Positions 8,605 to 42,685 of a stretch of 64,000 nucleotides of DNA are shown here, piece by piece. A program made the position numbers and the translations under genes. Each line of letters starts with the position of its first letter. Within the stretch, counting starts at the first letter, position 1. This DNA comes from Escherichia phage rV5_ev147, in sequence record LR597647, one strand, 5' to 3'. The notes beneath the pieces are model-generated. The model saw nothing but the letters and a program-made list of their open reading frames with translations, had not been told where the DNA came from and did no database searches.

Positions 8605-8633
8605 TTGACTAATAGTATTAGATAATCTATAAT
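8605..8633 (+). promoter_or_regulatory. sigma70-like promoter (TTGACT-17-TATAAT)
   Basis: consensus hexamers, 17 bp spacer. Confidence 0.55.
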
Positions 8634-8634
8634 A

Positions 8635-9135
8635 ATGGCTCACTTTGTTGGTGAGCCAGAAATGGAGACAGATATGAGTAATGTTATGATTCCTAAAAAG
8701 ACATTTATTTCAGTTACTTTAGATTTTCTATCTACCGTCCCCGGGTTTAACGTTCGCACACGAAACGGTCTCCGAGCTGCACTCTTTGCCGTAGGGTTTG
8801 ATTTAAAAAGTATTGATGTTCTTCGTGGAAAAAACGTTCGATGCAAAAATAAGCCAACACATTATCGAAAGGCAGATGTATTTGCTGGTGTCATGCGTGC
8901 AGACTTTAGATACCCACAAATGTATAACGGTGTAGATATTTTAGATGTAGATAAAGCACCTGGTGAGGCAATGCTTGTTCAAGATCTCCCGTATGATATC
9001 CCTGTAGAGGATCGTGTTAATGTAAGAAAGTATACAAAACAATCTGAAAAGGCTGAAGATATTCATATTGTTGATGAACCTTTCAATTTTGAAGATCTGC
9101 ATCGCCTGGAAAAATTATTCGGTATTGAAAGCTAA
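8635..9135 (+). CDS. hypothetical protein (start uncertain)
   Basis: ORF; first ATG lies inside promoter footprint so true start probably downstream. Confidence 0.4.
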   Translation: MAHFVGEPEMETDMSNVMIPKKTFISVTLDFLSTVPGFNVRTRNGLRAALFAVGFDLKSIDVLRGKNVRCKNKPTHYRKADVFAGVMRADFRYPQMYNGVDILDVDKAPGEAMLVQDLPYDIPVEDRVNVRKYTKQSEKAEDIHIVDEPFNFEDLHRLEKLFGIES

Positions 9136-20314: not shown

Positions 20315-20548
20315 ATGAAAGTTAAATTTCTTACAGATTTAGGGTACCCTTCCTTGGTTGACTGTGTTGGTAAAATTGTGGAAGCAAAACGGCTATCTGC
20401 AAACGAGAATGTTGTCCTGGTTAAAGGGAAGGATTTACTAGCTGCAGGTGCAGAGTCTGGCAGGATCTCTCCTGATTATATGTATTACCTATCTTTAAGT
20501 AATCTGCCAGAGCGAGGCGGTAAAGGCCTTGAAGTTGTGGAGGAGTGA
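20315..20548 (+). CDS. small acidic protein, paralog family 1
   Basis: MKVKF..GKDLLAAGA..EVVEE. Confidence 0.5.
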   Translation: MKVKFLTDLGYPSLVDCVGKIVEAKRLSANENVVLVKGKDLLAAGAESGRISPDYMYYLSLSNLPERGGKGLEVVEE

Positions 20549-23593: not shown

Positions 23594-23877
23594 TAATGAA
23601 AAAGATTAACAGTAGTGAAGTAGAGTTTAAACTTGTCGGAAAAGGCACTTACTGGGAAGTTCGTCAAAAGGTATATTTGTTCGGTCTTATTCCCTACTGG
23701 TCTAAATTCTACTGGGGAGCTAACGAGTTGGGAAGATACGCCACCAAATCAATGGCACTTATTGGTATAGCAGAGTACATTGCAGCCCGAGACAGGGTTG
23801 GAACCACTTATTACTACACTGCTGACGATATTCGTAACAGTGTTTACGTCCCACAACCACCTGATGGAGACCGTTGA
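23590..23877 (+). CDS. hypothetical protein
   Basis: ORF. Confidence 0.45.
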   Translation: MIMKKINSSEVEFKLVGKGTYWEVRQKVYLFGLIPYWSKFYWGANELGRYATKSMALIGIAEYIAARDRVGTTYYYTADDIRNSVYVPQPPDGDR

Positions 23878-24101
23878 TGAAAGTTAAAGTTTTAGATTCA
23901 AGCTTCTATATTGGTCAGGAGCCTTTAGTAGGAAAAGTGTTTACTGCTGTCCCTAACGAAGATTACCCTGACCTTTTAAAAATAAAAGGAGCAGATCTTA
24001 TTGCCGCTGGTGCATCTCAGGAATGCTTTGACAGTCAGTGGACCTATAACTTTGCCCTAGGTGAGGATGTAGAGGTAGTGGAGGACGATCATGAAGGTTA
24101 A
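23874..24101 (+). CDS. small acidic protein, paralog family 1
   Basis: MKVKVL..GADLIAAGA..EVVEDD. Confidence 0.5.
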   Translation: MMKVKVLDSSFYIGQEPLVGKVFTAVPNEDYPDLLKIKGADLIAAGASQECFDSQWTYNFALGEDVEVVEDDHEG

Positions 24102-24345
24102 AATTCTTGATTCTAACGTCTACTTGGGACAATCCTTCCTGAATGGAAAGGTCGTTCCTGCGGTATACTTTGAAGGGTTGCCGTGGGATGATCCTGTGCG
24201 GCAACATCACAGTTATGTAGGCCACAACGTGGTGTTTATCTTGGGATCAGACCTGATCACCGCTGGTGCACCTGAATATTATTTCGGGGAAGAGTCCTAT
24301 TATGCCTTTGGGGCAGGGTCAGATGCAGATATTGTAGAACTGTGA
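24091..24345 (+). CDS. small acidic protein, paralog family 1
   Basis: MKVKIL..GSDLITAGA..IVEL. Confidence 0.5.
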   Translation: MKVKILDSNVYLGQSFLNGKVVPAVYFEGLPWDDPVRQHHSYVGHNVVFILGSDLITAGAPEYYFGEESYYAFGAGSDADIVEL

Positions 24346-24357
24346 TGGGTAACCGTT

Positions 24358-24756
24358 GTGAAAAATAAACTATTCAAAGTTACAATGAAAATTCGCGGAG
24401 CTTGGAGCGTAAAGCAAGGGCGTATCCCAGAATTTGAGAAAGACTTCTACGTAGTCTCCACCTCGGAGGAGGCTGCATGCTGGCAGGCTGGCTATGCCTA
24501 TGCAAGAACCTGGTACGAAGGATACCAGACCGGGGGATATGACGGAGAAATTATCAGCAGGGGTGTGGAAGAAATTAATGTGTTGACAAGTGAAAAAGTT
24601 TTTGTTATAGTGCATCCAGATTCCAGAGTGAAGCATTACTGGAACGCCAGAACAAAAACTTGGACACCGTTTGCAGATTCTGCTACGCCACTTTTAAACC
24701 AGAAAGCTCTTGACTCTGCCCCAAGTTATGGGATTGTTGAAGAAAAGCTAAACTGA
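24358..24756 (+). CDS. hypothetical protein, paralog family 2 (start uncertain)
   Basis: C-terminal HPDSRVKHYWNARTKTWTP shared with ORF 26562-26957. Confidence 0.45.
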   Translation: MKNKLFKVTMKIRGAWSVKQGRIPEFEKDFYVVSTSEEAACWQAGYAYARTWYEGYQTGGYDGEIISRGVEEINVLTSEKVFVIVHPDSRVKHYWNARTKTWTPFADSATPLLNQKALDSAPSYGIVEEKLN

Positions 24757-25070: not shown

Positions 25071-25099
25071 TTGACACAACGCTTCAGATTTAGTATCAT
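25071..25099 (+). promoter_or_regulatory. sigma70-like promoter (TTGACA-17-TATCAT) followed by leader hairpin
   Basis: hexamers plus hairpin AGAGGG-tttggtt-CCCTCT at 25110-25135. Confidence 0.5.
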
Positions 25100-25146
25100 T
25101 GTTTTAAAAGAGGGTTTGGTTCCCTCTTCTTTAAAAGGAACACGTT

Positions 25147-25464
25147 ATGCAAATTGAAATCACTGGCAACGTAGAAATCACTGAAGGTATGGTGTCTTTC
25201 ATTTCCCACAAAATGTCTAAGCTGGAGCGTTTGCACCCATCTGCCAACTATGCACGTGTGAGTGTAAAAGTTGAAAATGATCACCAGGAAGTTATGGCGT
25301 TCATTTTTGACAATTCTGGAAAAGAAGTTATTGCCAAGGCTAAAGGCAGTGATGCTTACGAGGCAACTGACCGTATGGTAGATGTTGCAGCACGTCAGCT
25401 GGCTAAATGCGGTGGAAAGAAAGGTAAGGGGAAAGGCAAAGTAAAGATTGACTTTGGAGAATGA
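25147..25464 (+). CDS. hpf: ribosome hibernation promoting factor / RaiA (YfiA) family homolog
   Basis: MQIEITGNVEITEGM...KLERL...VSVKVEN...G.DAYEA.DRMVDVAARQLAK follows E. coli HPF (MQLNITGNNVEITEAL...) along its length. Confidence 0.8.
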   Translation: MQIEITGNVEITEGMVSFISHKMSKLERLHPSANYARVSVKVENDHQEVMAFIFDNSGKEVIAKAKGSDAYEATDRMVDVAARQLAKCGGKKGKGKGKVKIDFGE

Positions 25465-25601
25465 GGTGCTACAATGGGTGTGATTGAGAAATTAGTCCCA
25501 AATGTAGAGATTGCATGCTTTGAAATTATGTTTGCAATCGCAGTTGTAGTTAATGTGTTAGGTTACGGCTATTAATATCAAATAATTGAGGAGACCTCTA
25601 A

Positions 25602-25871
25602 ATGAAAATTAAATTATTCAAAACTGAGCTGGCAGACAAAAATTGTGGTCTGGTTGAAGGCATGATTGTTGAAGCACAACCAGTGGACTATATGAAGGTG
25701 GTTCGTGATGCCCTGGGTGAAGGTTTTGATCTGATGGAGCCAGCCCTGCGGGAAGATGTTATCGAGATGGCTAAAAAGCACACACCTGAAGGTTTGGTGG
25801 TGTTTATTGCACCGGGTAACGGAGAAGAGTTGATTGTAACTCCTGATGTGTATGAGATTGTAGAGGAATAA
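25602..25871 (+). CDS. small acidic protein, paralog family 1
   Basis: MKIKLF..C-terminal YEIVEE. Confidence 0.5.
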   Translation: MKIKLFKTELADKNCGLVEGMIVEAQPVDYMKVVRDALGEGFDLMEPALREDVIEMAKKHTPEGLVVFIAPGNGEELIVTPDVYEIVEE

Positions 25872-26229: not shown

Positions 26230-26562
26230 ATGAAAGTACGCTTTATTGGTGAAACAATTCCTGTGCATCTCAGGTCGCCTGAAGATTCTGCGGATCTTGC
26301 ATCTCAGAAGGCGAGAGGTTATGATAAGAAAGTAATCTCAACCGATGTAGAACTTGAGGCTACTAGTCTACCTGACCCTGCTGCATTCTTTAATCATTAT
26401 GGATACTATTTCAGCAATCTGATGAATATCGGTGAGCTTGTGTTTATTAGTGGTGGAGAAATTGTTAGCAAGCTTGGCGGCGATCCGGATATCTTTCATG
26501 AAACCTGTCCTTTTGCATTTGTGGTAGGTTCAGATGTGGAAGTTATTGAGGAGGTGCGGTAA
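26230..26562 (+). CDS. small acidic protein, paralog family 1
   Basis: MKVRF..VVGSDVEVIEE. Confidence 0.45.
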   Translation: MKVRFIGETIPVHLRSPEDSADLASQKARGYDKKVISTDVELEATSLPDPAAFFNHYGYYFSNLMNIGELVFISGGEIVSKLGGDPDIFHETCPFAFVVGSDVEVIEEVR

Positions 26563-26957
26563 TGGTAAGCCTATACCGTGTTGAGTATAGCTCAGATACT
26601 GTATACAACGTAAGAAGCAAAGATCGCAGCGACAGAGTGCAAGAAATGTATGTTCTTGCCGACAGTCCGTTATCTGCAGCGTTCAAGGCAGGGGCTCTTG
26701 CATCTCGTTGGAAATTTGAAGGTGGATCTTTCTATGAAGAAACCCTTGAAGATTCTGTTGTTATTTCTTCTGTAGAGGTTTCAGATGACTACGAAGGGAA
26801 AAAGTTCGTAATGCGGCACCCACACAGCAACATTGCGTACTACTGGGATGTTCTGAACAACGAGTGGACCCCAGATCTTCAGAAGGCTACTGTGCTAACA
26901 CCGTTTTTGGCAGATAAGTTCCCACCAGAAGGTAATTTATCCGCACTGTTTCAGTAA
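26562..26957 (+). CDS. hypothetical protein, paralog family 2
   Basis: HPHSNIAYYWDVLNNEWTP shared with 24358-24756. Confidence 0.45.
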   Translation: MVSLYRVEYSSDTVYNVRSKDRSDRVQEMYVLADSPLSAAFKAGALASRWKFEGGSFYEETLEDSVVISSVEVSDDYEGKKFVMRHPHSNIAYYWDVLNNEWTPDLQKATVLTPFLADKFPPEGNLSALFQ

Positions 26958-40084: not shown

Positions 40085-40141
40085 GATATTTTCTCCTATT
40101 TTCTTTGTTAGTGGCGGGAAGTTTTCCCGCCTGTGTGTTTA

Positions 40142-42637: not shown

Positions 42638-42685
42638 GATCTTTTTCCTTTGTGTTGGCGGGAAACATTCCCGCCTTTTGTGACT

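Follow-up and report, generated by a model that had tools for sequence, protein, structure and literature searches.

Escherichia phage rV5_ev147 carries a gene for a 105-residue protein that resembles the bacterial factors of ribosome hibernation. This raises the questions of whether the protein is a true member of that family, whether it would act on ribosomes, and how its synthesis is controlled. The window analyzed here is a 64,000-nucleotide stretch of the phage sequence (record LR597647), about 47% of the genome, and all positions refer to it. Our explanation is that the gene product, gp139, is a captured hibernation promoting factor (HPF), expressed from the promoter P144 and acting at the ribosomal site of its cellular relatives, and that the hairpin in its leader is a generic one. 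Taken as a whole, we give this explanation a probability of roughly 0.55; its parts differ in strength and are discussed in turn.

The locus and its public record

The gene corresponds to rV5 ORF144, and three features define it:

25147-25464, plus strand: hpf-like gene (rV5 ORF144, product gp139, YP_002003641), ATG to TGA, 105 aa
25147-25413, plus strand: HPF/YfiA core of rV5 gp139, residues 1-89
25405-25461, plus strand: Lys/Gly-rich tail KCGGKKGKGKGKVKIDFGE, residues 87-105, net charge +5, predicted to be disordered

By nucleotide comparison, the 3-kb stretch around hpf is 100% identical to that of Escherichia phage rV5_ev156, and some 115 further rV5-type members of Vequintavirus match it at 97-99% identity. 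The rV5 hpf gene, its family assignment and its promoter P144 are already known from databases and from papers of 2013 and 2019. The PF02482 match of ORF144 is listed in Table S3 of Kropinski 2013 (PMC3606486), rV5 HPF is one of Mizuno 2019's own examples of virus-encoded ribosome-associated factors (PMC6375957), and the presence of hpf in rV5_ev isolates has been remarked upon (PMC6969025). On the expression of Vequintavirus hpf during infection, or its functional follow-up, literature searches found only Mizuno 2019 and Mathieu 2020, and they found no transcriptome of rV5-type phages.

The public names of gp139 vary. RefSeq calls it RaiA (in full 'ribosome-associated translation inhibitor RaiA', NC_011041), and GenBank records use 'ribosome hibernation factor', 'hpf' and 'sigma 54 modulation factor'. 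Annotation errors are spreading in the region of hpf and ORF146 (25147-25464 and 25602-25871) among the OR0625xx, MT8840xx and MN850xxx records. The hpf gene is mislabelled 'ATP-dependent protease La type I' in several GenBank records, and the MN850xxx phages give the name 'sigma 54 modulation factor' to ORF146 (25602-25871), which is unrelated and has no Pfam match.

Some records also place the gene in unexpected hosts or replicons. GenBank MG065635-MG065690 includes 18 'Campylobacter phage' records (host C. jejuni) that are 97-100% identical to rV5-type coliphages, hpf included, and these probably reflect host misattribution or contamination. PLSDB entry CP057073.1, a 137,565-bp E. coli 'plasmid' from pooled cattle faeces, encodes a 99%-identical copy of the phage HPF under the name raiA and looks like an rV5-like phage genome assembled together with its host.

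Family membership and predicted fold

It is almost certain that gp139 is an HPF-family homologue. The initial annotation had aligned the 105-aa ORF with bacterial HPF/YfiA along its whole length. Homology is borne out by significant Pfam, TIGRFAM, structure-sequence and tblastn matches, so that profile and BLAST comparison with the HPF family (PF02482, TIGR00741, tblastn) agree; the alignment itself covers residues 1-89 or 1-91, and the last 15-19 residues or so have no counterpart. The sole Pfam domain of gp139 is PF02482 (Ribosomal_S30AE), matched at E=1.8e-12 and 48.3 bits against a gathering score of 23.7, and the HPF/YfiA family model TIGR00741 is matched at 45.9 bits against a cutoff of 40.9. 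The E. coli HPF structures 2rql, 4v8h and 6h4n match residues 1-89 with E about 5e-12. The C-terminal dimerization domain of long HPFs is absent from the 105-aa protein in the Pfam scan.

By sequence, gp139 is closer to HPF than to RaiA. With the window as tblastn target, E. coli HPF is 43% identical over 88 aa (E=1.7e-14) and E. coli RaiA 25% identical (E=0.02); in alignments, gp139 has 41% identity to HPF versus 22% to RaiA. Its nearest cellular sequences are the enterobacterial HPFs, at 43-45% identity. It scores under the cutoff of both equivalog models, with 55.8 bits against 125 for short HPF (NF007780) and 17.6 bits against 158 for RaiA/YfiA (NF007654). RaiA identity, as in the RefSeq name, was rejected. 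Because gp139 falls below the NF007654 cutoff and its tail is basic and unrelated to that of RaiA, the RefSeq label is unjustified at the equivalog level.

An AlphaFold2 model of gp139, built from a 20-sequence alignment, has a mean pLDDT of 85 and the order beta-alpha-beta-beta-beta-alpha, with strands at residues 2-7, 33-43, 46-55 and 60-67 and helices at 13-29 and 70-89. The first 37 Foldseek matches of this model in the PDB are all hibernation factors, the best being V. cholerae HPF (4hei_A; TM 0.93, rmsd 1.0 Å), and E. coli HPF in the 100S ribosome (6h4n_x) is matched at TM 0.90. Genuine HPFs as a group lie at TM 0.8-0.93 and 35-41% identity.

The residues judged critical were chosen by family conservation. 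In family alignments the near-invariant T12, K22, G58, A63, D69, Y71, D75 and D79 are all kept, RQLAK satisfies the family motif R-Q-L-x-K, and K22, K25, R83 and K87 are kept on the two helices. Helix 2 departs from the consensus in two places, with DMYAAID replaced by DAYEATD and DKL by DVA.

Among known systems, gp139 has most in common with the short HPF of E. coli and other enterobacteria (YhbH; 2RQL, 6H4N) and of V. cholerae (4HEI). They share the single S30AE domain, 41-44% identity over residues 1-88 including the near-invariant residues, and the same predicted fold (about 1 Å rmsd). The tails differ, that of short HPF being the 9-residue KHKDKLKQH and that of gp139 19 residues long and rich in Lys and Gly. 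With E. coli RaiA (YfiA, protein Y), gp139 shares the domain, the fold and a C-terminal extension beyond HPF length, but identity is only 22-25%, and the gp139 tail is shorter, basic and unrelated, whereas the RaiA tail is acidic-ended. Other phage HPFs (Cronobacter phage GAP32; phrog_8990) and virus-encoded ribosomal proteins share with gp139 the concept of a virus-borne ribosome-associated factor. In PHROGs, gp139 has its own family, phrog_12469, labelled 'unknown function', which is separate from phrog_8990 and matches it weakly (E=1.5e-6). The GAP32 HPF is placed apart in the tree of Mizuno 2019 (PMC6375957). The weak match fits separate origins of the two phage families and is no proof of them.

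The C-terminal tail

Neither structure-sequence matches nor the family alignment revealed a counterpart of the KCGGKKGKGKGKVKIDFGE tail in HPF or RaiA. Residues 93-100 have pLDDT below 50 in the AlphaFold2 model. The protein sequence of the tail is unchanged across relatives despite 5-9 nucleotide changes, mostly synonymous, and from this codon pattern the tail is under purifying selection. A divergent orthologue that is 64% identical has a different tail sequence, which is likewise basic.

Two kinds of length variation are seen in the gene (loci L010, L011 and L014). In phage Murica, and in the partial match from APECc02, the Lys/Gly tail is shortened (the Murica protein has 99 aa), perhaps because of slippage or misread bases in a low-complexity AAAGG repeat. 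Near the N-terminus (25165-25170), alleles differ by one Asn codon, GNVEIT versus GNNVEIT, the latter being the form of E. coli HPF.

Distribution, selection and origin

The dN/dS of hpf is 0.03-0.09 against seven relatives, a range that covers comparisons with dS of at least 0.13 and up to 0.74. By this measure hpf is under strong purifying selection, and gp139 is very likely a functional protein. The gene was found in 117-118 records, and other genome regions retrieve 118-120 Vequintavirus records, making hpf effectively a core gene of the genus. Outside it, tblastn gave no match to hpf in the Salmonella, Klebsiella and Cronobacter Vequintavirinae, in which the ribonucleotide reductase region was detectable. 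The 64%-identical orthologue comes from an uncultured sister lineage, represented by 125-kb contigs of about 75% nucleotide identity, in which it is syntenic.

Database searches returned few relatives. A word-indexed protein search with gp139 found phage copies only, and a scan of IMG/VR gave only two loci. The exhaustive search of representative sequences gave 22 matches at E<=1e-3 among 1.84 billion sequences, the E-values being scaled to 1.8 billion sequences, which keeps matches at this threshold few; one of the 22 (P0006) is a spurious repeat protein. Given the 43% identity to cellular HPF and the small number of representatives, we take hpf, from its sequence, to have been captured long ago and to have diverged afterwards. 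The gene taken up by an ancestor of Vequintavirus would have coded for a short hibernation promoting factor of the enterobacterial type, and its identity would have fallen to about 43% over time.

Promoter and gene neighborhood

Two control elements precede the gene:

25071-25099, plus strand: sigma70-type promoter P144, -35 TTGACA at 25071-25076, 17-nt spacer, -10 TATCAT at 25094-25099
25134-25139, plus strand: Shine-Dalgarno (SD) sequence AAAGGA of hpf, spaced 7 nt from the ATG and free of base pairs in the leader fold

A consensus-like promoter had been proposed at 25071-25099, and it holds up: the site matches the consensus at 11 of 12 positions and is the annotated P144, base-for-base identical to 'Sigma70-type promoter P144' in RefSeq NC_011041 and listed in Table S4 of Kropinski 2013 (PMC3606486). 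Sites with at least 11 matches out of 12 number 18 in the window, versus 1.65 +/- 1.2 in Markov simulations (about 11-fold enrichment). Across the 11 aligned sequences the -35 hexamer never varies; at the -10, the 10 from Vequintavirus read TATCAT or TATTAT, and a divergent relative reads AATTAT. The start of transcription at about 25106 is predicted, placed 7 nt after the -10 hexamer. The ribosome-binding site of hpf is also annotated in phage Murica.

The hpf cassette sits inside an array of small, early-type genes, described by Kropinski 2013 as an array of 88 small ORFs (PMC3606486). Because of this location and the consensus sigma70 promoter, hpf is inferred to be expressed early. Host sigma70 RNA polymerase would transcribe from P144 both hpf and the tiny membrane-protein gene that follows it:

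25474-25575, plus strand: ORF145 (rV5 gp140), 33-aa predicted membrane protein, phrog_15151

The SD of ORF145, GAGGTG, overlaps the hpf stop codon, and this arrangement suggests that ORF145 is probably co-transcribed and translationally coupled with hpf. ORF145 appears as 'Membrane protein, 1 TMD' in Table S3 of Kropinski 2013 (PMC3606486). In the divergent relative L003, gene calling places nothing like ORF145 between hpf and its downstream neighbor.

Other sequence features surround the cassette. A promoter-like site lies within the 3' end of hpf at 25448-25475 (TTGACT-16-TACAAT with an upstream TG, 10/12), and its -10 extends into the ORF145 ATG (25474-25475). The cassette is also flanked by a paralogous two-gene module (24091-24756 and 26230-26957). 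The ORF at 24091-24345 belongs to one paralogue family with those at 23877-24101, 20315-20548 and 26230-26562, its membership being linked via 23877-24101 with no direct match; the ORF at 24358-24756 is related to that at 26562-26957, both being in phrog_7379. The blastp E-values of these links range from about 6e-4 to 4e-14.

Proposed action on ribosomes

The initial annotation took a phage copy of HPF to imply direct manipulation of the ribosome state of the host, which is a candidate role. In the published test, Mizuno 2019 (PMC6375957) expressed rV5 HPF from pBAD24 and found its peptides in the crude cell extract; no rV5 HPF peptides were present in the 70S and 100S fractions purified under high-stringency salt, and 100S abundance was unchanged by the expression. 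In that one test gp139 differs from short HPF, showing neither a 100S effect nor ribosome association. The explanations offered there are growth phase, the salt washes, or a genuine loss of binding. The control of the genes also differs, gp139 having a consensus sigma70 phage promoter and the host HPF gene being induced at growth arrest (PMC7913689).

[quoted passage not shown] Since gp139 keeps the fold and the helix residues K22, K25, R83 and K87, is under strong purifying selection and has a selected polybasic tail, we lean toward gp139 acting on vacant ribosomes at the HPF site. The core would bind the tRNA/mRNA cleft (A/P sites) of vacant 30S or 70S, as do cellular HPF and RaiA, and the Lys/Gly tail would give added electrostatic contact with 16S rRNA. 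As with the RaiA tail, it may extend towards the mRNA channel and the RMF site. Against this model speak the negative published test, the score below the HPF equivalog cutoff, the differences in helix 2, and the search of the window for an RMF homologue, which found none.

Both parking or shielding of ribosomes and competition with host hibernation factors are candidate outcomes, because hibernation factors are known to block RNases and the tail of RaiA to encroach upon the RMF site (PMC7913689). We prefer the first, in which idle ribosomes in the infected cell would be held in reserve, out of reach of nucleases, until they are taken up by phage mRNAs.

Competition would make gp139 an anti-hibernation decoy. 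Through weak or transient binding at the HPF/RaiA site, or a tail that occludes the RMF site, it would outcompete host HPF, RaiA and RMF, prevent or dissolve 100S ribosomes and free ribosomes for phage mRNAs, with the greatest effect in slow-growing or stationary hosts. Such a role was proposed for viral HPF by Mizuno 2019 (PMC6375957), and weak or salt-labile binding would suit the negative result of that study. The gp139 tail, which is under purifying selection, exceeds the HPF tail by 10 residues, and it is a C-terminal extension that underlies the RaiA-RMF antagonism (PMC7913689). However, 100S abundance did not change in the published test, though the cells there were not hibernating; the basic tail is unrelated in sequence to the acidic-ended tail of RaiA; and the consensus sigma70 promoter suggests that the protein also acts in growing cells. 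Taken together, a decoy is possible but rather unlikely.

A related and equally tentative idea is that gp139 is a re-tuned, tailed HPF, made early from transcripts with hairpin leaders, that serves as a fast-exchanging, salt-labile ribosome shield or as an anti-hibernation decoy. It would fill the HPF/RaiA site and, via the tail, the RMF/anti-SD region, and so would guard idle ribosomes from host RNases or A-site toxins, or block hibernation imposed by the host. This is compatible with the negative binding assay, which was run at high salt and on cells in growth.

The leader hairpin

Between promoter and SD lies a hairpin:

25108-25128, plus strand: 5'-proximal leader hairpin, stem AAGAGGG (25108-25114) and CCCTCTT (25122-25128), loop TTTGGTT

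The initial annotation had seen here a terminator-like hairpin with a T-run and suggested attenuator-type control. The hairpin is real: a 7-bp stem with a 7-nt loop, at -9.9 kcal/mol, starts 2 nt from the predicted 5' end. The T-run is interrupted (TTCTTT), the hairpin being followed by CTTT and then AAAA (25129-25136). The leader is 41 nt long, with a single hairpin and a free SD, and folding and reading of its sequence found neither an antiterminator pairing nor a leader ORF. The 71-nt leader region folds no better than shuffles (z = -0.63). The terminator scan of the window did not flag the hairpin, and the Rfam search left the leader unmatched, its sole match at E<=1 lying downstream (25593-25679).

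A 5'-proximal hairpin is kept in ten Vequintavirus relatives with changed loops and stems (-7 to -12.5 kcal/mol). The sequence after it varies even among close relatives, being TTCTTT, TTCCTT, TTCTGC or TTATTT. In the divergent relative L003, the -35 and the gene are retained, the leader is about 17 nt long, and the hairpin is absent.

Similar hairpins recur elsewhere in the window, as shown by a survey of 26 promoter-like sites that are followed by an SD and an ORF. Leaders of 13-34 nt mostly have no hairpin (P107 at 8605 is the exception), and about 9 of the 15 leaders of 41-76 nt have one that starts near +3 to +8. Energies of -7 kcal/mol or lower occur in 7 of the 26 leaders, against 9% of random 32-mers. 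The hairpins behind the minus-strand promoters 42713, 40169, 34817, 36337 and 61576 all lack a T-run. Given this recurrence, the hpf hairpin is one instance of a general transcript architecture in this phage.

G+C-rich hairpins with no T-run also lie behind the minus-strand promoter 42032 and on the plus strand at 8605-8660, and identical stems, GGCGGGAA/TTCCCGCC, occur in two leader hairpins at 40113-40131 and 42657-42675. These phage-wide leader hairpins are missing from the published rV5 promoter and terminator table. On the minus strand at 58586-58500, a strong terminator-like hairpin, GGCCCTGCCCGAAAGGGTGGGGCTTTTT (rV5 t232), comes no more than about 20 nt after the consensus promoter P231.

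Under attenuation, the hairpin and T-run would be a regulated leader terminator that sets the amount of hpf mRNA. The arrangement is suggestive, in that a stem-loop followed by TTCTTT stands between promoter and SD, and true terminators do follow some promoters in this genome, as at P231/t232. But the stem, at -9.9 kcal/mol, is weaker than all 20 rV5 terminators predicted with ARNold (-11.5 to -24.7 kcal/mol; Kropinski 2013, Table S4, PMC3606486), a list that does not contain it. Because of this weak energy, the unconserved U-tract, the lack of an alternative fold or leader peptide, the loss of the hairpin at the divergent orthologue locus, and the recurrence of like architecture with no T-run at unrelated genes, attenuation is rejected as highly improbable, and the lack of an Rfam match for the leader also speaks against it.

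The hpf hairpin is thus likely to be a generic leader stem-loop rather than an attenuator. Stem-loops of the ompA type at the 5' terminus reportedly stabilize bacterial mRNAs. The hpf hairpin is alike in starting about 2 nt from the 5' end, itself predicted, and in leaving the SD free downstream, a likeness of mechanism with no claim of membership. By this analogy, its role would most plausibly be to protect the 5' end of the mRNA, as a generic 5'-terminal stem-loop. Less probably, it may be a weak insulating terminator.

Other possible functions

Exaptation would have the fold (HPF/dsRBD-like) re-used away from the ribosome, for example as an Acb4-like sponge for a nucleotide immune signal or for binding another RNA. 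The Acb4 anti-CBASS sponge (PDB 9E4W) has been reported to resemble hibernation factors including 4HEI (PMC11722364), and 9e4w_N is among the fold matches of gp139 (rank 47, TMq 0.51). Ribosome association went undetected in Mizuno 2019, and the neighbors of hpf are early genes of unknown function. Against this, gp139 has no PF13876 match at E<=1, hhalign with an Acb4 homologue gives a probability of 0.07%, and Acb4 is tetrameric and differs in topology. Genuine HPFs are far nearer to gp139, which keeps the near-invariant residues of that family. With no sequence or profile similarity and a fold match much weaker than those of HPFs, an Acb4-like sponge was rejected as the primary reading, and a non-ribosomal role of any kind is slightly less probable still than attenuation.

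That hpf is a dispensable passenger, acquired from a host not long ago and playing no part in infection, is scarcely credible: the gene is accessory at the subfamily level, given the missing tblastn matches in the Salmonella, Klebsiella and Cronobacter phages, and its tail is shortened in Murica and APECc02, but the dN/dS of 0.03-0.09, its presence in essentially every Vequintavirus genome and in the sister lineage (64% identity), and an identity of a mere 43% to host HPF, which speaks against recent capture, all point the other way.

Significance

To the existing record of rV5 hpf, this analysis adds the rejection of the attenuator idea, the evidence of selection on the gp139 tail, the finding that the RefSeq 'RaiA' label is unjustified at the equivalog level, and the observation that 5' leader hairpins recur behind promoters of this phage. 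If gp139 acts on ribosomes, it would clearly exemplify how a virulent phage can manage the idle-ribosome pool of its host, by protection or by anti-hibernation. If true, this would bear on how phages infect gut bacteria that grow slowly and on the use of rV5-like phages in therapy.
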